Origin: an uncultured beta proteobacterium
GTDB lineage: Bacteria > Pseudomonadota > Gammaproteobacteria > Burkholderiales > SG8-39
Reading direction: 5' to 3'
Length of the DNA stretch: 64,000 nt
Assembly: GCA_963827595.1 (NCBI GenBank)
Contig: CAWHBT010000016.1
Coordinates: 172,803-236,802 of the forward strand
In this document: positions 83 through 57,286 of the stretch, in pieces
Numbering within the stretch: the first letter of the stretch is position 1
Layout of the letters: each line of letters begins with the position of its first letter
Position numbers and translations under genes: made by a program
The notes under the pieces: model-generated
Told to the model about the DNA's origin: nothing
What the model saw: the letters and a program-made list of their open reading frames with translations, nothing else
Database searches by the model: none

Positions 83-1687
83 ATGCATTGGACCGACGTT
101 CCGCCGCTCCGCGACGAGACCCACTTCGGGCGCGCGCTGCGCTGTTTCGCGGATCGGCCATTCAACCTCAACGCGATGTTCGCCGATACGGTCGCCCGCT
201 ACGGCGGCCGCGAGGCCCTCGTCGACGGCGAGCAGCGGCTCGACTACGCGCGGCTCGATCGCATCGCCGACCGTCTCGCCGGGCACTTCCACCGCCTCGG
301 CCTCGCGCGCGGCGACCGGATCGCGCTGTACCTCGGGAACGAGCGCGAGTTCGTGCACGCCCTGCTCGCCACCTTGCGGCTCGGCGCCATCGCGGTGCCG
401 GTCAACGTCCGCGAGCAGCGCCCGGAGCTCGCTTTCATCCTCAATCAGTGCGGCGCCAGAGCGATCGCGTTCGACGCGGCCCTCGCCGACCGCATCCCGG
501 CGCCGGGCGATGTCCCTGCGCTCGCGGTTCGCCTGAGCGTCGGCGGCGCGGTGCCCGGCGCGATCGCCTTCGACGAGCTGCTCGAGACGCGCTCGCCAGA
601 CGCGCCGCGCGCGGACCCGGCCGAAGCGGAACCGGCGGTGATCCTGTACACCTCGGGGACCACCGGCCGCCCGAAGGGCGCGGTGCTGACGCACCTCAAC
701 GTGATCCACTCGGTGCTTCACTACCGGGTCTGCATGCGGCTCACCTCGGCCGATCGCTCGTTGCTCGCGGTGCCGGCGAGCCACGTCACCGGGCTCGTGG
801 CCATCACCCTCGCCATGTTCGCGGTCGGCGGCTGCGTGATCATGTTGCGCGAGTTCAAGGCGCGGGCCTTCCTCGAGCTCGCCGCGCGCGAGCGGATGAC
901 GCACACGCTGGTCGTGCCGGCGATCTACAACCTGTGCCTGCGCGACCCCGACTTCGGCCGGTTCGACCTCTCGGCCTGGCGCGTCGGGGGCTTCGGCGGC
1001 GCGCCGATGCCCGAGGGGACGATCCGGTCGCTCGCGGAGCAGCTGCCCGGATTGACGCTGGTGAATGCGTACGGTGCGACCGAGACGACCTCGCCCACCA
1101 CCATCATGCCGATGGGGCTGCAGACCGCGAACCTCGACAGCGTCGGCGTGGCCGTGCCTTGCGCCGCGGTGCGCGTGGTGGACGACGCCGGCCGGGACGT
1201 CGCGCCGGGCGACTCCGGCGAGATCTGGATCGCCGGGCCGATGGTGGTGCCCGGCTACTGGGACAACCCGGAGGCGACCGCCCGCGAGTTCGATGGCGGC
1301 TATTGGAAGTCGGGGGACATCGGCGCGATGGACGCGCGCGGCTTCGTGCGCGTCTTCGACCGCAAGAAGGACCTCATCAACCGGGGCGGCTACAAGGTCT
1401 ACAGCGCGGAGGTCGAAAGCGTCCTCAGCCTCCACGCGGCAGTGGTCGAATCCGCATTGCTCCCCGTCCCCGACCCGGTGCTGGGAGAGAAGACCCGCGC
1501 AATCGTCGTCGCCTCCGACGCGGGCTGCGACGCCGACGCGCTTCGGGCACACTGCGCGCAGCATCTGGCGGACTACAAGGTGCCCGACTTCTTCGTTTTT
1601 CGGTCCGAGCCCCTCCCGCGCAACGCGAACGGCAAGGTGCTGAAGCGCGCGCTGCGCGACGATCGGTCGGGGCAGTCAAGGTCTTGA
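83..1687 (+). CDS. AMP-dependent acyl-CoA synthetase/ligase
   Basis: 534-aa ORF with the adenylate-forming signature YTSGTTGRPKGAVLTH, GYWKSGD and a C-terminal NANGKVLKR motif. Confidence 0.9.
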   Translation: MHWTDVPPLRDETHFGRALRCFADRPFNLNAMFADTVARYGGREALVDGEQRLDYARLDRIADRLAGHFHRLGLARGDRIALYLGNEREFVHALLATLRLGAIAVPVNVREQRPELAFILNQCGARAIAFDAALADRIPAPGDVPALAVRLSVGGAVPGAIAFDELLETRSPDAPRADPAEAEPAVILYTSGTTGRPKGAVLTHLNVIHSVLHYRVCMRLTSADRSLLAVPASHVTGLVAITLAMFAVGGCVIMLREFKARAFLELAARERMTHTLVVPAIYNLCLRDPDFGRFDLSAWRVGGFGGAPMPEGTIRSLAEQLPGLTLVNAYGATETTSPTTIMPMGLQTANLDSVGVAVPCAAVRVVDDAGRDVAPGDSGEIWIAGPMVVPGYWDNPEATAREFDGGYWKSGDIGAMDARGFVRVFDRKKDLINRGGYKVYSAEVESVLSLHAAVVESALLPVPDPVLGEKTRAIVVASDAGCDADALRAHCAQHLADYKVPDFFVFRSEPLPRNANGKVLKRALRDDRSGQSRS

Positions 1688-1796
1688 TCGCGACCGTCCG
1701 CCCGATCACGGGATCCAGCGCCTTGTAGACGCAGCCCATGCCGCCCTCCCCGAGGACGGAGAGGATCTGGTATCGACCGAGCGTGCGGGGGTTCAT
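1677..1796 (-). pseudogene. Ser/Thr protein kinase, N-terminal ~40-aa remnant only
   Basis: ATG at 1796 encodes MNPRTLGRYQILSVLGEGGMGCVYKALDPVIGRTVAIKTL (glycine-rich loop GxGxxG plus VAIK lysine). Kinase similarity stops where the convergent acyl-CoA ligase ends (stop 1685-1687). The rest of the 123-aa ORF is antisense to that gene. Confidence 0.5.
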
Positions 1797-1830
1797 CGAC
1801 TCCCCAGTGTAGCGGTGATCGTTGGGGCGG

Positions 1831-13164: not shown

Positions 13165-14172
13165 ATGAGCCCGATGCGGCGCTTCCTGCGGCTTGCGTCC
13201 GCCGCGGTGCTCGCCGCCGCAGTCGCCGCGCCGGGCGTCGCCCAGACGTACGCCGACCATCCGGAGGCCCGCAAGTTCGTCGCCGAGATGGTCGAGCGGC
13301 ACGGCTTCAAGCAGCGCGACCTCGAGCGGCTGTTCGCCGACGCCCGTTACGTCGACCAGGTGGTGACCCTGATCACGCCGCAGCCCCCCGGCGAGCGCTC
13401 GTGGCAGTCCTACCGGGAGCTGTTCGTGACCCAGCGCCGGATCGAGGGCGGAGCGCAGTTCTGGCGCCGCCATGCCCGCGCGCTCGCGCGGGCCGCCGAA
13501 ACCTACGGCGTGCCGCCGGAGATCGTGGTCGCCATCATCGGTGTGGAGACCCAGTACGGCGCCAATACCGGGAACCACCGCGTGCTCGACGCGCTCGCCA
13601 CGCTGGCGTTCGACTATCCGCGCCGTGCGGCCTACTTCCGCTCGGAGCTCGAGCAGTTCCTGCTGTTCGCCCGCGAGTCGGGCGCCGACGCGACGAGCTT
13701 TCGCGGCTCGTACGCCGGCGCGATCGGGATCCCGCAGTTCATGCCGGGCAGCATTCGGCGGTTCGGGGTCGACTTCGACGGCGACGGCCGGCGCGACCTG
13801 CGGGCGAGCCCTGCCGACGCGATCGGGAGCGTCGCCAACTTCCTGCGCGCCCACGGCTGGGCCGGCGGCGAGCCGATCGCGGTGCCGGCGCGAGTGAGCG
13901 GCGCCGCGCGCGGGCGTCTGCTGATCGGCGGCGGCGTCGATCCCCTGCACCGGGCCGACGAGCTGCGCGAGCTCGAGGTGGAGTTCGCCGACACGATCGA
14001 GCCGGATACGCCAGCGGTGCTGATCGAGCTCGCAACGCCGGGCGCGCCCGCGGAGTATCTCGTCGGCTTCTGGAACTTCTACGTGCTCACGCGTTACAAC
14101 CGTTCGAGCTTCTACGCCGCCGCGGTGCTCGAGCTCGCGCAGGGCGTCAAGGCCGCGCACGGTTCGCCCTGA
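13165..14172 (+). CDS. mltB: lytic murein transglycosylase B
   Basis: Signal peptide, then IIGVETQYG (catalytic Glu block), [11 protein letters not shown] and [12 protein letters not shown] motifs of MltB. Confidence 0.85.
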
Positions 14173-14195
14173 CGGCCGCCGCAGCGCCCCCATCG

Positions 14196-14684
14196 ATGAC
14201 CCTCCCGCTCGAGATCCGGGCCGCGACCCGCGACGACGTCCCGACCCTGCTCGAGCTCGTCCGTGCGCTCGCCGAGTACGAACGGCTGACCCATCTCGTC
14301 GCGGCGGACGAGCGCGGGCTCGCGCGCGAGCTCTTCGGGCCGGCGCGCCACGCCGAGGCGATCCTGGGGTTTGCGAGTGGGACTGCGGTCGGCTTCGCGG
14401 TCTACTTCCACAACTTCTCGACGTTCCTCGGGCGCCCTGGTCTGTACCTCGAGGACCTGTTCGTGCGGCCCGAGCACCGGCGCCACGGCTACGGGCGGGC
14501 GCTGCTGCTGCACGTCGCGCGGCTCGCGCATGCGCGCGGGTGCGGCCGGTTCGAGTGGATGGCGCTCGACTGGAACGCGCCGGCGATCCGGTTCTACAAG
14601 TCGCTCGGCGCGGCCGAGCTGGCCGAGTGGCGCCTGTTCCGGGTCACCGGCGACGCACTCGCCCGGCTGGCGACCATGGAGTAG
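14196..14684 (+). CDS. GNAT-family N-acetyltransferase
   Basis: 162 aa with the acetyl-CoA pocket [10 protein letters not shown] and a C-terminal [13 protein letters not shown] block. Confidence 0.85.
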
Positions 14685-14740
14685 CGCCGACTGGACGCGC
14701 CGCGCGCGCTGGGGCTCGCCCTCGGGGCGGCGCGGCCGGC

Positions 14741-15665
14741 TCAGAGCAGGAGGTCTTTCGAAAACCCGCGCTGCTTGAGCGCCGCGCGCAGGTGCGCCAA
14801 CGCCTCGAGCTGGATCTGCCGCACCCGCTCGCGCGTGAGCTCCGAGCCGATCGGCCAGACTCTCCAGCGTGCAGACCTCGCGGCCCTTCAGCCCGAACCG
14901 GCACTCGATCACCGTCCGCTGCTTGTCGTTGAGCTGGCTGAGCCACTCGTCCACGAGGGTCGCGAGCTCGGTGGAAGCGAGCAGCGCCTCGGGCGTTGCG
15001 CCCGAGTCGTCCGCGATCGACTCGCCGATCGACAGCATCGGATCGACGTCGAGCGGCGCGTCGAGGGAGGCGAGGTGCTCGTTGTGGGCGAGCACCCGGC
15101 GCACCGCCTCCGGGTCCCGCCCGATGAGGTGCGCGATGTCCTCGACCCGCGGCTCGCGCTCGGCCGAGGCCTCGAGGTGGCGGCGCGCGCGGAGCACGAC
15201 GTTGATCTCCTTGATCACGTGCACCGGCAGGCGGATGGTGCGCGACTGGTTCATGATCGCGCGCTCGATGTTCTGCCGGATCCACCACGTCGCGTAGGTC
15301 GAGAACCGGAAGCCGCGCTCGGGATCGAACTTCTCGAGCGCGTGCATCAGCCCGAGGTTGCCCTCCTCGATCAGGTCGAGGAACGGCATTCCGCGGTGCA
15401 GGTACTGCTTCGCGATGTTCACCACCAGCCGCAGGTTGTGCTCGATCATCTTCTGCCGGGCGGCGAACTCTCCCTGGGCCGTCAGGCGCGCGTAGTGCAG
15501 CTCCTCGGCCGGCGTGAAGAGCCGATTCATTCCGATCTGGTGCAGGTAGAGCTGCGTGACGTCGACCGGGAGGTCGGGCTCCTCGGCGCCCGGCGGCGGC
15601 TCCGCGGGCGCCTCGCCCGCGAGCAGCTCCTCGGGAGGGAGCGAGTCCGGGTTGGCGCCGGTCAT
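14741..15665 (-). pseudogene. rpoS: RNA polymerase sigma factor RpoS, interrupted by a 1-nt frameshift in region 4.2
   Basis: N-terminal 274 aa are colinear with RpoS ([67 protein letters not shown]). After ...[10 protein letters not shown] the frame is lost near 14840. The +1 frame then reads [32 protein letters not shown], with the stop at 14741. Confidence 0.85.
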
Positions 15666-15685: not shown

Positions 15686-16729
15686 TTAGTTCGGCCGGGT
15701 CGGCAGATAGGCGAGCGGATCGACCGGCTTGCCGAGGCGGCGGATCTCGAAGTGGAGCTTCGCTTCCTTCGCACCGGTCGCGCCGAGCTCCGCGATCTTC
15801 TGCCCGCGCGCGACGTTCTGCCCTTCCTTCACCAGGATCTGGCTGTTGTGGGCATACGCCGAGAGATAGGTGTTGTTGTGGCGGATGATCACGAGCTTGC
15901 CGTAGGCGGGAATGCCCTCGCCGCTGTAGACCACCCGGCCGGCCGCCGAGGCGAACACCGGATCGCCGACGCGACCGGCGATGTCGACGCCCTTGCTCGC
16001 CGTGCCGTTGAACGTCGCGACGACCTTGCCGGTCGCGGGCCACATCCAGTCGACGCGCTCCCCGGCCGCATCCGGCTCGGGTTTGGGAGCCGCTGCCGGC
16101 GGCTCCGGCTGCGCTGTGGCCGGCGCCTCGGGTTTGGCGGTCGCGGGCGCCTCGGGCTTCGCGGGCGCCGCCGCAGGCGCTTCGGGCCTGGGCGCCGCGC
16201 GCGCCGCCTCGGCGCGCTGCAGAGCCGCGAGGTTGTCGTCGGAATACGGCAGCCTCACGCCCTTCGGCTCGGTTTTCAGGGCACTCGTTCCGGGCGTGAC
16301 GGGCGTCGACGCGGCAGGCGCGCCGGGTGGCGCCGTCGCGGCGGGCACCTCGGCGCCGAGCGGCCGCGTCACGATCGGCTGGCCCGCGTCGATCGGGCTG
16401 ACGACGACGCCTTCGCCTGCCGCAGCCGCCGCCGCGGGCCGCACCCGCAGCACCTGTCCCGTCTGCAGCTTGGTCGGATCCGAGAGCTGATTCAGGGCGG
16501 CGAGCTCGCGCCAGTCGACACCCTGGTCGAGCGCGATGCTGTACAGCGTGTCTCCGCGCTTCACTACATATGTGTCGGGTGGCAGGGCCTGGGGGGCCGG
16601 GGCGGCGGGCTTGACCGCAGCGCGCGGCGCGCTGCGGTCGTCGACCGGCGCCGGCCTGCGCTGGACGCAGCCGAGCAGCGCGAGCGCGGTCGTCGCGGCG
16701 ACGAAGACACGGAGCCATTCAGCTTGCAT
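15686..16729 (-). CDS. nlpD: LysM / M23 peptidase lipoprotein NlpD
   Basis: Lipobox LALLGC, LysM ([14 protein letters not shown]...), an Ala/Pro-rich linker and a C-terminal M23 domain ([19 protein letters not shown]...LHFEIR). Immediately upstream of rpoS. Confidence 0.85.
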
Positions 16730-16732
16730 GCG

Positions 16733-17362
16733 TCATCCTTTGCCGGCCCGCAGCGGCACGAATCGCGCCGCTTCGAGCCGGGTTTCACGGTACCCGCCTG
16801 CGGTGCGCTCGACGACGCGGAGTTCCTGAGCGTCGGTCCCGACGGGGATCACCAGCCGGCCGCCCCGCGCCAGCTGCTCGCGGAGCGCGCGCGGCACCTC
16901 GGGCGCGGCAGCAGCGACCACGATCGCGTCGAACGGCGCGACCTCCGGCAGCCCTCGATAGCCGTCGCCGTGGACGAGGCGGAGGTTCGAGAGGCGCAGG
17001 GGTCGCAGGTTCGCCCGCGCCTTCTCGCCGAGCGCCGCGATCCGCTCGATCGAATACACCTCCTTCGCGAGGCGCGCAAGCACGGCCGCCTGGTACCCGC
17101 AGCCGGTGCCGATCTCGAGCGCGCGCCCCAGCTCGCGGCCGGCGCGCGCCGCCTGGAGCATGCGCGCCACGGCGAACGGGCGCGAGATGGTCTGCTCGAA
17201 ACCGATCGGCAGCGCCGAGTCCTCGTATGCCCGAGTCGCGAGCGCCTCCTCGACGAACGCGTGGCGCGGGGTTTCCACCATCGCCGCGAGTACCGTTTCG
17301 TCCGCGATGCCCTGCGTCCGCAGCCGGGCGACCATGCGGGCCCGGGTGCGAACCGAGGTCAT
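16733..17362 (-). CDS. pcm: protein-L-isoaspartate O-methyltransferase
   Basis: SAM-binding motif [15 protein letters not shown] and conserved [11 protein letters not shown] prefer the ATG at 17362, because the longer start at 17392 lies inside the REP-like element. Confidence 0.9.
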
Positions 17363-17385
17363 GCCGCTGCCGCGCGGCAGCGCGC

Positions 17386-17452
17386 CGCTCATTGGACTTC
17401 CCTCGCGCAGAGCGCTCGGGATTCGCGCTTGGGGCGGCCCGGCGCGCTCATT
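17386..17452 (-). repeat. inverted third copy of the REP-like element
   Basis: The reverse complement reads ATGAGCGCGCCGGGCCGCCCCAAGCGCGAATCCCGAGCGCTCTGCGCGAGGGAAGTCCAATGAGCG, near-identical to 13046-13105. It lies between surE and pcm. Confidence 0.7.
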
Positions 17453-18188
17453 CGAGCCATCCCTTCACCAATGGGATCTGGCTCTGGTGGGTGAGATCCA
17501 TCTGCAGCGGCGTCACCGACACGCGATCGGACGCCACCGCGAAGAAATCCGTCCCGGGCCCGGCGTCCTGCGCCTCGCCGGCGGCGCCGATCCAGTAGAC
17601 GGTCTGGCCGCGCGGGTTCTGGGTCTTCACCACGTCCTCGGCCTTGTGCCGTTTCCCGAGCCGCGTCACTTCCACGCCCTTGAGCGCGTCGAACGGGAGG
17701 TCCGGCACGTTCACGTTGAGCAGCACGGGCTGCGACATCGCCCGGCGCGCGAGCCGCTCGACGAGGTCGCGCGCGATCCGCCCTGCGGTAGCGTAGTGAC
17801 GTCCCTCCTTGCTCGTGAGCGACACCGCCACGGCCGGGATCCCGAGCAAGTAGCCCTCCGTCGCCGCCGCGACGGTCCCGGAGTAGATGGTGTCGTCGCC
17901 CATGTTCGCACCGAGGTTGATGCCCGAGACCACGATGTCCGGGGGCTCGTCGAGGAAGCCGGTGACGGCGAGATGGACGCAATCGGTCGGCGTGCCGTCC
18001 ACGAACAGGAAGCCGTTCGCCGAGCGGCGGACGGCGAGCGGGCGATCGAGCGTGAGCGAGTTGGAGGCGCCGCTCCGGTCGCGCTCGGGCGCGACGACCG
18101 TCACTGTCCCCAGACCGACGAGGGATTCGGCCAGCACCGCCAACCCCGGCGCGAAGTAGCCGTCGTCGTTCGAGAGGAGGATCCGCAT
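17448..18188 (-). CDS. surE: 5'/3'-nucleotidase SurE
   Basis: [16 protein letters not shown]-terminus and [21 protein letters not shown] motif. Conserved surE-pcm-nlpD-rpoS order. Confidence 0.9.
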
Positions 18189-29000: not shown

Positions 29001-29248
29001 CGGCCGCGTTCGCGTTCGGCGTGCTCCCGCTCGCGATCGCCGTCGGCGCGGGCGCGAACGCGCGCCACTCGATCGGCACCGGGATCCTCGGCGGCATGAT
29101 CGGCGAGACGACCCTCGCCATGCTGTACGTGCCGCTCTTCTTCTACATCTTCGACCGCATCAACGAGCGCAAGGCGCTGCGCACGCCGGCGGCGGGCGGC
29201 GGAGTGCCCGCGCCGGCCGCGCCGCACGCGCCGCGGGAGGGGGAATGA
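26060..29248 (+). CDS. RND efflux permease (AcrB/MexB family)
   Basis: 1062 aa. MFSRFFIERPIFAAVVAILL N-terminus, 12-TM organisation and VVDDAIVVVENVER motif. Confidence 0.95.
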   Translation: MFSRFFIERPIFAAVVAILLTLAGAVALTALPVQQYPGITPVQVTVQATYPGADSQTLADSVAAPIEAQINGVDNMLYMSSTSSSSGQMTLTVFFSLDTNPDIAQVQVQNRVNLAMPQLPAAVTQLGVSVQKKSSSIMMLVAVYARDGRYSPEYVANYANVYVLDALKRVPGAGQAQVMGVADQAMRIWMNPDRMASLQITTTDIQNSVAAQNALFGAGQIGQQPSAGPVELTFPVVTQRPFTDPKQYERIILRASQDGSAIVRVGDVARAEVGLRQYIVDSRLNNEPATYIAVYQQAGANGLIVSAAIRQTLEQMKDRFPDGIDYAIALDTNDFVRLSIEEVIHTLIEAVILVVLVVFLFLQSIRTTLICAVAIVVALVSTFAGMLALGFSINLLTLFGLVLAIGMVVDDAIVVVENVERIMVKEHLPAKEATLRSMGEIASSLVAVVLVMASVFIPAAFLPGTTGQLYKQFAITIVVSVTVSGFVALTLTPAMCSVLLKHKPAPTRGFFAWFNREVDRVTRGFGHAVTIMIARMAIALVLLAVFLYAIWHLFMTLPTSFVPNEDQGYGFAVIVMPDAASLERTQVVAERVDAMLAKIPGVEKRAMVTGYSLIDQGFKPNAGTFFITFRDFKERYSSLASAREQNARAILVTLYREAQAIEGATVFPVPPPPIPGIGTTGGFEFWVQDTGAGDPARLDELTQEVIRQASARPELASIHTTFRASTQQLRADVDREKATLLGVPVEDVYSAIQAQFGSLTVSQFNQFSRVWWVILQSDAKYRQSPEDLARLYTRSSQGKMVPLSALVTTRWVTGPDLLPHFNGFPAAKITGNAAPGYSSGQSIAAMEAVAREVLPPGYTFAWSGLAFEEKKAGGTSMLAFVFGLIIVFLVLAAQYESWTLPGAVMTAVPFGVLGALTAIWLRGLENDVYFQIGLLVLIGLGAKNAVLRVTAAVELRHEGRSIMEATIEAGERRLRPIIMTSAAFAFGVLPLAIAVGAGANARHSIGTGILGGMIGETTLAMLYVPLFFYIFDRINERKALRTPAAGGGVPAPAAPHAPREGE

Positions 29249-30717
29249 TGCGGAGCGCCGCCTTCGCCGCGCTCGCCATCCTCGGCGGCTGCATGGTGGG
29301 GCCGGACTACCAGCGGCCCGAGGTCCCGATCCCGGCCGCCTACCGCTACGAGCCGCAGGCGGTCGCGCAAACCGCCGATACCGATTGGTGGAAGCAGTTC
29401 GGCGACCCGGTGCTCGACGGCTACATCGCCGAAGCGCTCGCGCACAACAAGAACGTGCAGATCGCCGTCGCCAACGTCGAGCAGGCCGCAGGCGTCCTCA
29501 CCACCACGCGCTCGCCGCTGTTTCCGCAGCTCAACTACCAGGCGGACGCCACGCGGCAGCGCCTCACCGAGAGCGTCCAAGCGCAACGGCTCGCCGCCGC
29601 GCTGGGCGGGAACCCGCAGACGACCTACCAGGTGCTCGCCGGTGCGAGCTGGGAGATCGACCTGTGGGGACGCATCCGCCGCCTCACCGAGTCGGCGCGG
29701 GCGAGCCTGCTCGCCACCGACGAGGCGCGGCGCGGCGTGGTGCTGTCGCTCGTCGCCTCCGTCGCCTCCACCTACCTGCAGCTGCTCGGCCTCGACGAGC
29801 AGCTCGAGATCGCGCAGCGCACGCTCGATACCTACGGCCAGTCGGTCAAGCTGTTCGAGCTGCAGAACAAGTACGGCCAGGTGTCGAAGATGAACGTCGA
29901 GCAGGCGCGCTCGCAGTACGAGACCGCCGCGGCCCAGATCCCGGTGATCAGGAGCCAGATCGTGCAGACCGAGAACGCGCTCGCGGTACTGCTCGGCCGC
30001 AACCCGGGCCCGATCGCCCGCGGGAAGAAGCTCGACGCCCTCGCCCTGCCCACGGTGCCGGCCGGATTGCCGGCCACGCTCCTCGAGCGCCGTCCCGACC
30101 TCCTGCAGGCCGAGCAGACCGCTGATCGCCGCGAACGCGCAGATCGGCGCGGCGAAGGCGCAGTACTTCCCGACCATCTCGCTGACCGGTGCGCTGGGGT
30201 CGGTGAGCCCCGAGCTCCGGAACCTGTTCACCGGGCCGGCCGGCGTATGGAGCTACGGCGGCTCGATCATCGGCCCGATCTTCACCGGCGGGGCGATCGC
30301 GGGCCAGGTCGCCCAGGCCGAGGGGGGCAGAAGGCGGCGCTTGCCTCCTACGAGCTCGCGATCCAGAACGCGTTCGCCGACGTGGAGAACGCGCTCGCCT
30401 CGAACGCGAACCTCGGCGAGCAGCTCGCGGCCCAGGGGCGCCTCGTCACGTCGCTTTCCGAGTACTCGCGTCTCGCGCGGCTCCAGTTCAACGGCGGCTA
30501 CACGTCCTACACCACCGTGCTGCAGGCCGAGCAGCAGCTCTTCCCCTCGGAGCTGAACCTCGCCAGCATCCGCGCGCAGCTCTACGGCTCGCTCGTCAAC
30601 ATCTACAAGGCGCTGGGAGGCGGATGGGTCGACAAGGCCGACGAGCTCTCGCCGCAGCCATCGGCGGCGGCGCTGCCGCCGCGAGCCCCGACCGGCTCGG
30701 CGACGCCGGGGCGCTGA
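29245..30717 (+). CDS. RND outer-membrane factor lipoprotein (NodT family) with an internal out-of-frame stretch
   Basis: Lipobox LGGC-MVGPDYQRP, WW.QF, and a C-terminal ALGGGW. Residues encoded by ~30118-30327 are nonsense in this frame. The neighbouring frame reads LIAANAQIGAAKAQYFPTISLTGALGSVSPELRNLFTGPAGVWSYGGSIIGPIFTGGAIAGQVAQAEG, the expected OMF sequence. Confidence 0.85.
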   Translation: MMRSAAFAALAILGGCMVGPDYQRPEVPIPAAYRYEPQAVAQTADTDWWKQFGDPVLDGYIAEALAHNKNVQIAVANVEQAAGVLTTTRSPLFPQLNYQADATRQRLTESVQAQRLAAALGGNPQTTYQVLAGASWEIDLWGRIRRLTESARASLLATDEARRGVVLSLVASVASTYLQLLGLDEQLEIAQRTLDTYGQSVKLFELQNKYGQVSKMNVEQARSQYETAAAQIPVIRSQIVQTENALAVLLGRNPGPIARGKKLDALALPTVPAGLPATLLERRPDLLQAEQTADRRERADRRGEGAVLPDHLADRCAGVGEPRAPEPVHRAGRRMELRRLDHRPDLHRRGDRGPGRPGRGGQKAALASYELAIQNAFADVENALASNANLGEQLAAQGRLVTSLSEYSRLARLQFNGGYTSYTTVLQAEQQLFPSELNLASIRAQLYGSLVNIYKALGGGWVDKADELSPQPSAAALPPRAPTGSATPGR

Positions 30718-45743: not shown

Positions 45744-47198
45744 CTAGGCGGGGGTGGTGCGCCCGACCGTCGCGGCGCCGGACTTGGCCGTCGCCGGCGG
45801 CGGGCCGACCTCTCCTTCCGCCGCCAACTCCGGCGGCGAAGGGGTGACGCCCTTCTCCGCGGCCGCCTCCGCGCTGTAGGCCGTGAGCTTGTTGTAGAGC
45901 GTCTTCAGGCTGATGCCGAGCATCTCCGCCGCCTTGCGCTTCACGTTGCCGCACTCCGCAAGCGTCGCCTCGATCAGCCGCCGGTTGACCTCCTCGAGCG
46001 TCGTGCCGATCCGCACGGTGAGCAGCGGCGACCGCGTGGGCTCGACGAGTTCCTCGGGCGCGAGCTCCAGGTCGATCACCTTGTCGGCGAGGATGTGCGC
46101 GCGCTGGACGTAGTTCTTCAGCTCGCGCACGTTGCCCGGCCAGCTGTGCGCGTAGAGCGCAGCGATGGCCGCCGGCGCGAACACCTTGCTCGTGCCCTCC
46201 TCCTCGTTCAACCGGTCGAGGAAGTGCTGGGCGAGGATCTCGATATCGGTGCCGCGCTCGCGCAGCAGCGGCATCTGGATCGGGAACACGTTGAGCCGGT
46301 GGAAGAGGTCCTCCCGCAGCTTGCCTTCGGCGACCGCCTTCTCCGGCACGCGGTTGGTCGCGGCGATCATCCGGACGTCGGTCGCGATCGGCGTGTTCAT
46401 CCCGACGCGCATGAAGGTGCCGGTCTCGAGCACGCGCAGGAGCTTGACCTGGAGCTCGTGCGGCATCTCGGTGATCTCGTCGAGGAACAGCGTGCCGCCG
46501 TGGGCACGCTCGAAGAACCCCTTGTGCTGGCGATCGGCGCCGGTAAAGCTGCCCTTTTCGTGGCCGAAGAGCTCGCTCTCGATGAGCTGCGGCGACACCG
46601 CGCCGCAGTTGAGCGGCAGGAACGGCGCGCGCTTGCGCCGGCTGAGCTCGTGGATCGTCTGCGCGGCGAGCTCCTTGCCGGTACCGCTCTCGCCGATGAG
46701 CAGCACGGTGGCGGAGGTCGGCGCGACGCGCCCGAGCTGGTCGTAGAGCTTCTGGATCGGCGGCGACTGGCCGAGGATGTGGCCGAACCGGCCCAGCTTG
46801 CGCAACTCCTGCCGCAGCTCGCCGATCTGCGCGCGCAGCTCGTCCGGACGCGGCACGCGCCGCAGGATCGCCTTCAGCCGCTCGACGTCCGCAGGCTTGA
46901 CGAGATAGTCGGTCGCGCCGGCGCGCAGCGCCTCGATCGCGCTCTCGGTGCTCGCGTAGCCGGTCATGACGACGAACTCGGTCGAATCGCGCCGCTCGAG
47001 GTCGGTGACGAGCTCGATGCCCTGCCCGTCGGGCAGGATGAGGTCGGTCAGCAGCACGTCCGGGGCGAGACGCGTCAGCTGAATGCGCGCGGCGCGCAAC
47101 GAGTCGGCGGTCGCGACCGTGAAGCCCTCCCCTTTGACGAACTCCGCGAGCCAATCGAGCGTTTCCGGGTCGTCATCGACGAGCAGCACGTGCGGCAT
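45744..47198 (-). CDS. sigma54-dependent response regulator (NtrC-family bacterial enhancer-binding protein)
   Basis: Receiver domain (VLLVDDDPE...LLTDLILPDG...KP). AAA+ core with Walker A GESGTGKE, the sigma54-contact loop ELFGHEKGSFTGA (GAFTGA variant), and R-finger/Walker B DEI. C-terminal Fis-type HTH KRKAAEMLGISLKTLYNKL. Confidence 0.9.
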   Translation of the reverse strand: MPHVLLVDDDPETLDWLAEFVKGEGFTVATADSLRAARIQLTRLAPDVLLTDLILPDGQGIELVTDLERRDSTEFVVMTGYASTESAIEALRAGATDYLVKPADVERLKAILRRVPRPDELRAQIGELRQELRKLGRFGHILGQSPPIQKLYDQLGRVAPTSATVLLIGESGTGKELAAQTIHELSRRKRAPFLPLNCGAVSPQLIESELFGHEKGSFTGADRQHKGFFERAHGGTLFLDEITEMPHELQVKLLRVLETGTFMRVGMNTPIATDVRMIAATNRVPEKAVAEGKLREDLFHRLNVFPIQMPLLRERGTDIEILAQHFLDRLNEEEGTSKVFAPAAIAALYAHSWPGNVRELKNYVQRAHILADKVIDLELAPEELVEPTRSPLLTVRIGTTLEEVNRRLIEATLAECGNVKRKAAEMLGISLKTLYNKLTAYSAEAAAEKGVTPSPPELAAEGEVGPPPATAKSGAATVGRTTPA

Positions 47199-47245
47199 GG
47201 CTGGACTCCTTTGCTCGAGTGTTGTTTGTCGTGACTGCGGCGCGG

Positions 47246-47277
47246 GTAACGTTTACCGCGCGGATTGTAATTCTTAC
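47246..47277. promoter_or_regulatory. paired candidate activator sites (best example)
   Basis: GTAACGTTTAC-CGCG (47246-47256) and GTAATTCTTAC (47267-47277). Centres are 21 bp apart, 71 and 50 bp upstream of the 47322 GG and ~50-80 bp upstream of the divergent activator gene. Confidence 0.5.
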
Positions 47278-47753: not shown

Positions 47754-48372
47754 TCACGCGCCCCGTCGACGGCGAAGATGCCAGTCCATGATCGGCGTGG
47801 CGGAGACCCCGTGCGCGAGCACTGAAGCGCCGATCACCGCCAGCGTCGCCGCCGCGAGCAGCGGTGCGTCGGCGGGCGCGCCGCGATTCAGCGCGAAGGC
47901 GAGCCAGTAGAGGGAGCCGAGCCCGCGCACCCCGAACCATTGGAGCAGCCCCCGCTCCCGCACCGACACCGATCCCCGACCAGCGACACCGCCACCGCGA
48001 CCGGACGGGCAACCAGGAGCACGAAGACGGCGAACCCCGCCGCGACCGCGGCGAGCGCGATCGTCACGACCAACGCCGGACCCGCGAGGCGCAGCGGCAC
48101 CCGCCACGCCGGGTCGGCGAGCCGGACGCCGAGCCGCAAGCCCACGCTGAAGAGCGACAGGACCACGCCGATCGCGGCGGTGCCTTCGACGAGGGGCAGG
48201 TGATCCGCGACATCGATGTCCAGCAGCCCGAGGCCCCGCGGCCGAGAGCGTCGCCGCAAGCGAGATAGAGGATCGCCGCGCTGAACAGCAGTCGCTCGAT
48301 CGCGGCGCCGGCCGGCGCCATGAGCAGCAGCAACGCGCCGGCGGCGAGGAACCATCCGGTGAGAAGACTCAT
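47754..48372 (-). pseudogene. cation:proton antiporter (CPA1-like) remnant with frameshifts and an internal deletion
   Basis: Three consecutive frames give MSLLTGWFLAAGALLLLMAPAGAAIERLLFSAAILYLACGDALG / PRGLGLLDIDVADHLPLVEGTAAIGVVLSLFSVGLRLG...LLVARPVAVAVSLVG / SVSVRERGLLQWFGVRGLGSLYWLAFAL...IMDW. Only ~205 aa in total, whereas the family normally has >400. Confidence 0.6.
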
Positions 48373-49799: not shown

Positions 49800-49815
49800 G
49801 GGCACGCGCGTTGCA
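49800..49815 (+). promoter_or_regulatory. putative sigma54 -24/-12 promoter
   Basis: 5'-GGGCACGCGCGTTGCA-3', exact GGCAC-N5-TTGCA. The -12 GC is 65 nt before ATG 49879. Confidence 0.65.
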
Positions 49816-52122: not shown

Positions 52123-53565
52123 ATGGGTCAGACCATGGAGCTGCGGCTGCGGCAGCACCTCACGCTCACGCCACAGCTGCAGCAGGCGCTGCGGCTGCTG
52201 CAGCTCTCCGCGCTCGAGTTCGAGCAGGAGATGCGGGAAGCGCTCGACACCAATCCGTTTCTCGAGGACGAGGAGGACGCAGCCCGCGTCAACGGGTCGG
52301 GCTCCGAACCGGCGACGGCGCCGGCGGAAGCTGCCCCTCCCGATTCGGGCGACGTCGCGCCCGCGCCGTCGGAGGCTCCGGACACGCTGCCCGGGATCGA
52401 CGGCCTGCCGCGGAACGCGAACGCGCACGACGGCGACGACACCGACTGGACCGAGTGGTCGGAGGCGCAGCTCACGCTGCGCGACCATCTCCGCCGGCAG
52501 CTCCTGCTCTCGCCGATGGGCGAGCGGGACCGGGGACTCGCGCACCTGGTGATCGACGCGCTGGACGCCGACGGCTATCTCAAGCTGAGCTTCGACGAGC
52601 TCGCGGCGCTGGTGCCGGCGGAGCACGACGTCGAGCCCGACGATCTCGCCGCCGCGCTGCGGCTGGTGCAGACGCTCGAGCCGACGGGCGTCGGCGCGCG
52701 GTCGCTCCAGGAATGCCTGCTGCTCCAGCTGCAGGCGCTGCCGGAGGGGACGACCGGCCGGCCCATCGCCCTCGCGCTCGTCGGCGAGCACATCGCGCTG
52801 CTCGCGGCGCGCGAGTTCGTGCGCCTGCAACAGCTGCTCGGTTGCAGCGACTCCGATCTGCACGTGGCGCGCAACCTGATCCGCTCGTTGAACCCGAAGC
52901 CGGGAGACCGGTACGGCCCGGACGACACGCGCTACGTCGTGCCGGACGTCATCGTGAGCAAAGTCCGCAACCGCTGGACCGCGACCATCAATCCGGCGGT
53001 CCAGCCGCGGATCCGCATCAACCGCGCCTACGCCGACCTGGTCGGTGCCCGCGCCACCGGCGGCCAGCAAATGTCGCGGCAGCTCCAGGAGGCGCGGTGG
53101 CTGATCCGCAACATGCAGCAGCGGTTCGTCACCATCCAGCGGGTCGCCGATGCGATCGTCGCGAAGCAGCGCAACTTCTTCGAGTACGGCGAAGTGGCGA
53201 TGAAGCCGCTCGGCCTGAAGCACATCGCCGCCCAGCTCGGGCTGCACGAGTCCACGGTCTGCCGGGTCACGAACGGCAAGTACATGGCGACCGCGCGCGG
53301 GCTGTTCGAGTTCAAGCGGTTCTTCTCGCGGCAGCTTGCGACCGACAACGGCGGCGCCTGCTCGGCAACGGCCATCCGTGCGCTGCTCAAGGAGCTGATC
53401 GCCAGCGAGCGGCCGGCGAATCCGCTGTCGGACGCCCAGCTCGCACGCCTGCTCGCCGGCCAGGGACTGCACGTGGCGCGGCGGACGGTGACCAAGTACC
53501 GGACGCTCATGCGGGTGCCGAGCGTCGAGCTGCGGCGCGCGTCGGCGCGCACCGCGGCGGCGTAG
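52123..53565 (+). CDS. rpoN: RNA polymerase sigma-54 factor
   Basis: SD AGGAGG. Region I MELRLRQHLTLTPQLQQALRLLQLSALEF, an acidic linker, a core-binding domain, the HTH HESTVCRVTNGKYM and the RpoN box ARRTVTKYR. Confidence 0.92.
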   Translation: MGQTMELRLRQHLTLTPQLQQALRLLQLSALEFEQEMREALDTNPFLEDEEDAARVNGSGSEPATAPAEAAPPDSGDVAPAPSEAPDTLPGIDGLPRNANAHDGDDTDWTEWSEAQLTLRDHLRRQLLLSPMGERDRGLAHLVIDALDADGYLKLSFDELAALVPAEHDVEPDDLAAALRLVQTLEPTGVGARSLQECLLLQLQALPEGTTGRPIALALVGEHIALLAAREFVRLQQLLGCSDSDLHVARNLIRSLNPKPGDRYGPDDTRYVVPDVIVSKVRNRWTATINPAVQPRIRINRAYADLVGARATGGQQMSRQLQEARWLIRNMQQRFVTIQRVADAIVAKQRNFFEYGEVAMKPLGLKHIAAQLGLHESTVCRVTNGKYMATARGLFEFKRFFSRQLATDNGGACSATAIRALLKELIASERPANPLSDAQLARLLAGQGLHVARRTVTKYRTLMRVPSVELRRASARTAAA

Positions 53566-55979: not shown

Positions 55980-55995
55980 AGGCACGCGGCTTGCA
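55980..55995 (+). promoter_or_regulatory. putative sigma54 -24/-12 promoter
   Basis: 5'-AGGCACGCGGCTTGCA-3', exact GGCAC-N5-TTGCA. The -12 GC is 36 nt before ATG 56030. Confidence 0.65.
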
Positions 55996-56652: not shown

Positions 56653-57286
56653 TCAGCGGCGCGCCAGGTTCTCGGACGCGAACTCCCAGTTCAGCAGCTT
56701 CTCGACCACCGCCTTGACGTGCTTGTCCCGCTTGTTCTGGTAGTCGAGGTAGTAGGCGTGCTCCCAGACGTCGACCGTCAGCAGCGGCGTCTTGCCCTGC
56801 ACGACCGGCGTGTGCGCGTCGGGGGTCGTGACGATCTCGAGCGCGCCGCCGTTCGCGACCAGCCACGCCCAGCCGCTGCCGAAGTGCCCGGTGGCCGCGC
56901 GCCGCAAACGCCTTCATGAACGCGTCGTAGCCGCCGAGATCACGGTCGAGTAGGCGGCGCAGCGCCTCGCTCGGTTTCCCGGGCTTCGGCGTCAGGCTCT
57001 CCCAGTAGAACGCGTGGTTCAGCGCCTGACCAGCGTTGTTGAAGACTTCGGCGCGAGCCGGGTCGTCCCGGGTGCGCTTGACGATCTCCAGCAACGGCAG
57101 GCGCTCGAGGTCGGTGCCCGCGACCAGCTCGTTGAGCTTCTCGACGTAGGCGCGATGGTGCTTGCCGTGATGGAGCTCGATCGTGCGCTTCGAGATCACC
57201 GGTTCGAGCGCGTGCCTCGCCCATGGCAGGGCGGGGAGGGTGAAGGGGCCGGGCGCGGTGGCTGCGCGGGGGAGTGGAGCGTTCAT
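56653..57286 (-). pseudogene. sodB: Fe/Mn superoxide dismutase interrupted by a 1-nt insertion
   Basis: The N-terminal frame reads FTLPALPWARHALEPVISKRTIELHHGKHHRAYV...NNAGQALNHAFYW...YDAFMKAFAA. The C-terminal frame reads AATGHFGSGWAWLV...LLTVDVWEHAYYLDYQN. The shift falls in GCGGCG-C-GCGGCC near 56900, and the span is 3n+1 nt. Confidence 0.85.

Follow-up and report, generated by a model that had tools for sequence, protein, structure and literature searches.

A surplus base in rpoS of an uncultured Burkholderiales bacterium is probably one of several consensus indels in its contig

Introduction

The RpoS proteins of Proteobacteria, such as those of Pseudomonas aeruginosa (7vf9 chain F) and Escherichia coli (5ipl chain F), comprise sigma regions 1.2 to 4 and are encoded downstream of nlpD. 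Null alleles of rpoS, in the form of frameshifts, stops and truncations, occur in stocks of E. coli and Salmonella and in starved cultures. A productive use of frame changes is found in prfB, the gene of release factor 2, in which a +1 shift is needed to read through. Frame breaks in deposited genomes can also have a technical origin: long-read assemblies and low-coverage bins are documented to contain false frameshifts that stem from uncorrected consensus indels (PMC9262707, PMC12007338), and nanopore consensus errors are mainly homopolymer indels (PMC9262707).

The rpoS gene described here comes from a 64,000-nucleotide stretch of contig CAWHBT010000016.1 (hereafter the window) and shares features with each of these precedents. 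After the removal of one base it encodes an RpoS with regions 1.2 to 4, downstream of nlpD, whereas the deposited frame breaks after residue 275 and leaves region 4.2 without its recognition helix. Like natural and laboratory null alleles, it has a frameshift of one base by which sigma-S function would be lost; those alleles, however, were verified in isolates, while this one is seen in a deposited sequence alone, in which two other conserved genes nearby are broken likewise and whose source is probably a metagenome-assembled genome. As in prfB, read-through would depend on a +1 shift, but the rpoS site is unconserved, lacks both a slippery codon and an in-frame stop, and has orthologues that are read in a single frame. 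The false frameshifts of long-read or unpolished assemblies resemble the situation in the window in consisting of isolated 1-nt indels that hit otherwise perfectly conserved genes several times per 100 kb (PMC9262707, PMC12007338), and in their effect on gene calls, which here are fragmented, over-long (517 instead of 307 residues) or internally garbled; unlike nanopore-type errors (PMC9262707), three of the four indels in the window lie outside homopolymers.

Results

The rpoS reading frame breaks within region 4.2

The gene lies on the minus strand, starts with an ATG at 15665-15663 and reads normally through Gly275 (GGA, 14843-14841), the last residue of the segment ...ESLADRLG. These 275 codons (14841..15665), delimited by translation, Pfam and tblastn, encode sigma regions 1.2, 2, 3 and 4.1 together with the first helix of the helix-turn-helix motif in region 4.2. 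Further downstream, the start frame yields nonsense and encounters its first stop only at 14112, giving an open reading frame of 517 residues (14112..15665, minus strand), 275 of them native and 242 out of frame, which runs antisense through the convergent gene of a GNAT acetyltransferase and into an SLT_2 gene. The missing C-terminus is found in the +1 frame, which opens only at 14887 and carries the last 31 codons and the stop (14741..14836, minus strand; TGA at 14743-14741), comprising the recognition helix of region 4.2 and the C-terminal tail (TRERVRQIQ...KDLLL), as assigned by translation, codon-position G+C, tblastn and alignment to 7vf9_F. At the junction, DNA and protein alignments with relatives locate one extra base in the quartet GCTC (14837..14840, minus strand). 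It shifts the last 31 codons into the +1 frame, and the deposited sequence therefore holds no uninterrupted rpoS frame.

The initial annotation of this DNA had reported rpoS at 14741-15665, broken by one base too many within region 4.2, and translation of both frames confirms the break, its place and these coordinates, while the DNA alignments with relatives bear out the single surplus base. More precisely, the frame changes after the first helix of the region 4.2 motif and before the second, at the cost of the recognition helix (TRERVRQ); the two helices were assigned from the established structure of the sigma-70 family. In tblastn, the RpoS of a relative matched the window in two pieces and two frames, the first covering 277 residues with 92% identity (E 2e-170) and the second 32 residues with 87.5% identity (E 1e-11), a result far beyond chance. 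The codon-position signal, a strong third-position G+C, persists in the displaced tail. The exact 517-residue product is already present in a public protein collection.

Removal of one base yields an RpoS of 307 residues with complete Pfam regions 1.2, 2, 3 and 4. In the protein as encoded, Sigma70_r1_2, Sigma70_r2 and Sigma70_r3 match fully, while Sigma70_r4 is matched at profile positions 1-31 of 50 only and stays under its cut-off. The repaired protein also passes both RpoS equivalog models of NCBIfam, with 448.1 bits against a cut-off of 394 for NF004207 (profile positions 52-328 of 329) and 426.6 bits against 378.7 for TIGR02394; the as-encoded product, at 396.5 bits with an alignment ending at profile position 296 of 329 and at 378.3 bits, respectively, scores at or just below these cut-offs. 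With Pseudomonas RpoS (7vf9_F), the repaired protein aligns end to end and gapless through the junction (E 7e-95). The equivalog models and this alignment thus agree with the gene identity proposed initially.

The gene sits in a conserved cluster

Immediately upstream of rpoS lies nlpD (15686..16729, minus strand), whose product combines LysM and Peptidase_M23 domains and which was recognized as an open reading frame and by synteny with Pfam-annotated genes of relatives. It is preceded by pcm (16733-17392, minus strand) and surE (17448-18188, minus strand), each 95% identical in tblastn to the corresponding gene of relatives (PCMT and SurE, respectively); the exact products of both occur in the public protein collection. 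On the other side, the GNAT acetyltransferase gene (14196..14684, plus strand), 92% identical in tblastn to an Acetyltransf_1 gene of relatives, converges with rpoS. The order surE-pcm-nlpD-rpoS-GNAT-SLT is the same in three relatives with Pfam-annotated neighbours (L001-L003). This is the canonical surE-pcm-nlpD-rpoS cluster, with an otherwise intact rpoS, in a Burkholderiales genome of 71% G+C. From its identity, the protein is predicted to direct the stationary-phase or general stress regulon in this organism.

The spacer between rpoS and the GNAT gene (14684-14740) has about 43 extra G+C-rich bases compared to L004, L006 and L008. Its predicted fold was no better than that of shuffled sequences (z = 0.66), and a search of this spacer for a terminator-like site found none.

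The insertion is confined to the window

For comparison at the DNA level, we aligned the window to six loci of relatives (L001, L003-L006 and L008), which represent five distinct rpoS genes (L004 and L006 being the same) and share 83-91% nucleotide identity over the locus. Where these relatives read CTCGGNG-TCACG, the window has CTCGGAGCTCACG, with exactly one extra base, and this is the only coding indel within 12-17.4 kb of the alignments whose length is not divisible by three. The relatives carry GTC (Val) at the site, and by that comparison it is the C at 14839 that is surplus and makes GTC into GCTC. Dropping the G instead, as in the initial annotation, restores the frame equally well and yields the Leu that is found in E. 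coli and Pseudomonas RpoS, but the sequence itself places the surplus base no more closely than within GCTC (14840-14837).

At the protein level, the junction reads RLGVTRERV in 15 of the 16 relatives aligned and LELTRERV in the remaining one. A protein search returned intact RpoS only, the best cluster representative being 92% identical. The nearest relatives, from the same 90% protein cluster, are 95% identical to the repaired protein and exactly 307 residues long; the 15 listed members of this cluster measure 303-311 residues, except for a fragment of 215 residues and the 517-residue product of the window itself. We also scanned GTDB genomes and JGI metagenomes with a degenerate pattern over the site that allowed either the 69-nt or the 70-nt form, and obtained five matches, all of the intact 69-nt length, with 83-91% identity across the locus; there was no same-species comparator among these matches. 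The 70-nt form with the extra base was absent from the six loci, the 16 aligned proteins and the five pattern matches. A comparison with related rpoS genes had been proposed along with the initial annotation, and its outcome is twofold: the extra base is there in the window, but it is specific to the window, all of the approximately 20 relatives examined at the junction being intact. Among other genomes, uncultured Burkholderiales MAGs come nearest, at about 90% nucleotide identity, and the close relatives were recovered from environmental metagenomes and MAGs, one set of the latter being from soil.

Between the repaired rpoS and those of relatives, dN/dS amounts to 0.13-0.22, while the relatives among themselves give 0.16-0.36, and only two residues of the repaired protein are unique to the window. 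The gene shows no relaxed selection. Since this is so, and since the displaced tail keeps its coding signal, the shift must be either very recent or not real. A long-standing rpoS pseudogene is rejected by the same dN/dS values.

Two further genes carry single-base indels

A model of codon-position G+C flagged places in the window at which the coding phase switches although no stop intervenes, two of which were confirmed as frame-breaking indels. One of them lies in the gene of an Fe/Mn superoxide dismutase, sodB (56653..57286, minus strand), which carries a +1 insertion, as seen from its frames, from DNA alignment to L010 and L011 and from a two-frame tblastn match: an extra G at about 56900 turns the GCGGC-CGCGG of the nearest relative into GCGGC[G]CGCGG. 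The repaired enzyme has 210 residues, aligns without gaps to solved superoxide dismutases and is 90% identical to a relative of the same length.

The other is the gene of a NodT/OprM-type efflux outer-membrane protein (29245..30717, plus strand), located downstream of MFP and AcrB genes, in which a match to the OEP domain in an alternative frame, the frames themselves and DNA alignment to L009 reveal two indels, one of +1 and one of -1. The former, a surplus G at 30121, and the latter, a missing C between 30324 and 30325, lie 204 nt apart; they leave the reading frame open but garble 67 residues, whose native sequence (LIAANAQIGAAKAQYFPTISLTG...) is found in the other frame. The corrected protein is 93% identical to those of relatives, compared to 86% for the window's own as-encoded product (P0132), a garbled but normal-looking protein of 490 residues that is present in public protein collections. 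As for rpoS, the indels in sodB and in the efflux gene are absent from the nearest relatives, and the native frames are perfectly conserved.

Among the 36 genes of the window that have orthologues in the relatives fetched, three thus have a broken frame, in every case through 1-nt indels and never through a premature stop. By tblastn, 33 of the 36 are collinear in one frame; only rpoS and sodB are split in two frames, the efflux gene showing depressed identity rather than a split. Pfam domains were complete in the remaining genes scanned. In total, four indels fall into three conserved genes within about 33 kb of comparable sequence. Three of the four are +1 events in which the inserted base differs from both of its neighbours, and they lie outside homopolymers; only the -1 indel, which turns GGGCGGG into GGGGGG, has a near-homopolymer context, and the homopolymer or other known error-prone context by which an artefact might be recognized is not shared by the set. 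Inspection of the four sites by eye revealed no common sequence motif, such as a methylation site.

Two other loci in the window are incomplete. A Na+/H+ exchanger (PF00999) at 47754-48372 (minus strand) is reduced to about 110 N-terminal and about 65 C-terminal residues spread over three frames, the middle of the profile (roughly positions 95-290 of 375) being missing; judged by this pattern, it looks like a genuine decayed gene. At approximately 1670-1799 (minus strand), a protein kinase stub matches only the first 38 positions of its domain (MNPRTLGRYQILSVLGEGGMGCVYKALDP...) and is cut off where a convergent gene of the acyl-CoA synthetase type (AMP-binding) ends, at 1687.

The window contains a stress island with sigma-54 promoter-like sites

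A neighbouring island of stress genes wired to sigma-54 had also been proposed, and the content of the window fits this description. General-stress genes accumulate between about 33000 and 63000, along with rpoN (52129-53565) and the gene of an NtrC-type sigma-54 activator (45744-47252, minus strand). They include genes for two PAS hybrid histidine kinases, CsbD, DUF1328, two BON-domain proteins, DksA/TraR, a Dps/ferritin-like protein and the superoxide dismutase, as well as for a PLD-type (cardiolipin-synthase-like) protein, an M48 peptidase, DUF883 and two AI-2E transporters. Across the window we counted 18 sigma-54 promoter-like sites (TGGCAC-N5-TTGC, at most one mismatch), compared to 3.06 expected, and none of 100 shuffles reached this number; 17 of the 18 are located within 33-62 kb, several of them just upstream of island genes, for example at 49800 before CsbD and at 55980 before the ferritin-like gene. 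Beyond its HTH_8 domain, the NtrC-type activator has a reading frame that runs on for some 34-43 codons (45744-45846, minus strand); the coding signal there is weak, and this extension could be a natural tail or the product of another small indel at the 3' end.

Discussion

Two readings of the frame break had been put forward at the outset, a real loss of sigma-S and an assembly indel. Because the insertion is unique to this record, the gene shows no decay and isolated indels occur in two other conserved genes, technical error is favoured, and we consider it probable that the extra base in rpoS is a consensus indel, introduced in sequencing or assembly and one of several in the contig. The deposited sequence would then hold one surplus base in codon 276, while the organism itself would make a normal RpoS of 307 residues, and all four indels would be technical errors rather than mutations. 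If 1% of genes were truly frameshifted, we calculate a probability of about 0.005 for finding at least three broken genes among 36. Natural indels in bacteria are of the slippage type and biased towards deletions, and the insertion of a base that differs from its neighbours is atypical for them. Some observations speak against an artefact: the contexts are mostly non-homopolymeric, so that the signature is not the classic nanopore one; two of the indels are just 204 nt apart, as independent random errors would rarely be; the apparently genuine gene remnants in the window point to some real decay in the lineage; and rpoS null alleles arise both naturally and in culture. The last of these leads to the main alternative, that the insertion is a real and very recent loss of function, a strain-level null allele selected under nutrient limitation or in culture. 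The extra base does stand in the deposited record, from which a 517-residue product was called, the integrity of the rest of the gene is as compatible with a very recent event as with an artefact, the loss of the -35 recognition helix would make this a true null, and such alleles are well known in enterobacteria. Yet the same explanation requires that rpoS, sodB and the efflux gene, three of 36, were freshly broken together, all by 1-nt indels and mostly by insertions that do not resemble slippage; moreover, the source would fit a long-contig metagenome-assembled genome, representing the consensus of an environmental population rather than a passaged isolate, the insertion is shared by no relative examined, and no second assembly of the strain was found. 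We therefore regard a real null allele as rather unlikely.

The indels could also be real at the level of the population, in that those in rpoS, sodB and the efflux gene became fixed in an environmental Burkholderiales population which recently lost sigma-S and Fe-SOD and whose stress genes (CsbD, BON, Dps-like, DUF883, DksA/TraR and others) are run by the adjacent sigma-54/NtrC-type system, the promoter-like sites of which are strongly enriched in the window. This scenario appears very unlikely. Very unlikely, too, is that the lineage is in real genome decay, with these three as members of a larger set of true pseudogenes. Several broken genes within 64 kb, together with the exchanger remnant, with its internal deletion and its two changes of frame, and the 38-residue kinase stub, are what such a process might leave behind, but rpoS, sodB and the efflux gene have acquired no extra substitutions, stops or deletions, coding density and G+C content (71%) are high, neither IS elements nor nonsense mutations were seen in the window, where 33 of 36 orthologues remain collinear in one frame, and the close relatives stem from environmental metagenomes and MAGs, the soil set among them. 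For a programmed +1 ribosomal frameshift, or another form of recoding that regulates RpoS synthesis, the sole point in favour is that a +1 shift at the junction would restore the full-length protein. The relatives examined all encode rpoS in one frame, so that the shift site is unconserved; the sequence CUC GGA GCU C offers neither a slippery stretch nor a zero-frame stop, the zero frame staying open for 242 more codons; and unrelated indels occur in the same window. With intact orthologues and no slippery site, programmed frameshifting is effectively refuted, and its probability is negligible.

A consensus indel being the preferred explanation, the proposal of a crippled sigma-S response in this bacterium finds no support, although it keeps a low probability: the insertion is confined to one record, rpoS is undecayed, and two other conserved genes are indel-broken as well. 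For the choice between the two initial readings, these other indels, the uniqueness of the insertion and the lack of relaxed selection weigh towards the assembly indel and leave real loss of sigma-S the less supported of the two. A real extra base would give a product of RpoS residues 1-275 followed by 242 nonsense residues, without the -35 recognition helix; retaining regions 1.2 to 4.1, it could probably still bind core polymerase, but as a sigma factor it would almost certainly be severely defective or null.

In practical terms, the contig calls for caution, as it yields a fused RpoS of 517 residues, a split superoxide dismutase and an efflux protein in which 67 residues are garbled. At least the corrupted RpoS and efflux products have already entered public protein collections: 11 of the 16 window proteins that we looked up, the 517-residue RpoS included, occur there exactly, each from one assembly only. 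Inferring a loss of sigma-S from the deposited contig would probably mislead. Should reads confirm the base, it would represent an ordinary strain-level rpoS null allele, of interest only if it were fixed in a natural population beside a stress island driven by sigma-54. Most probably, however, nothing here departs from known biology, the organism having an ordinary RpoS and the anomaly being technical.
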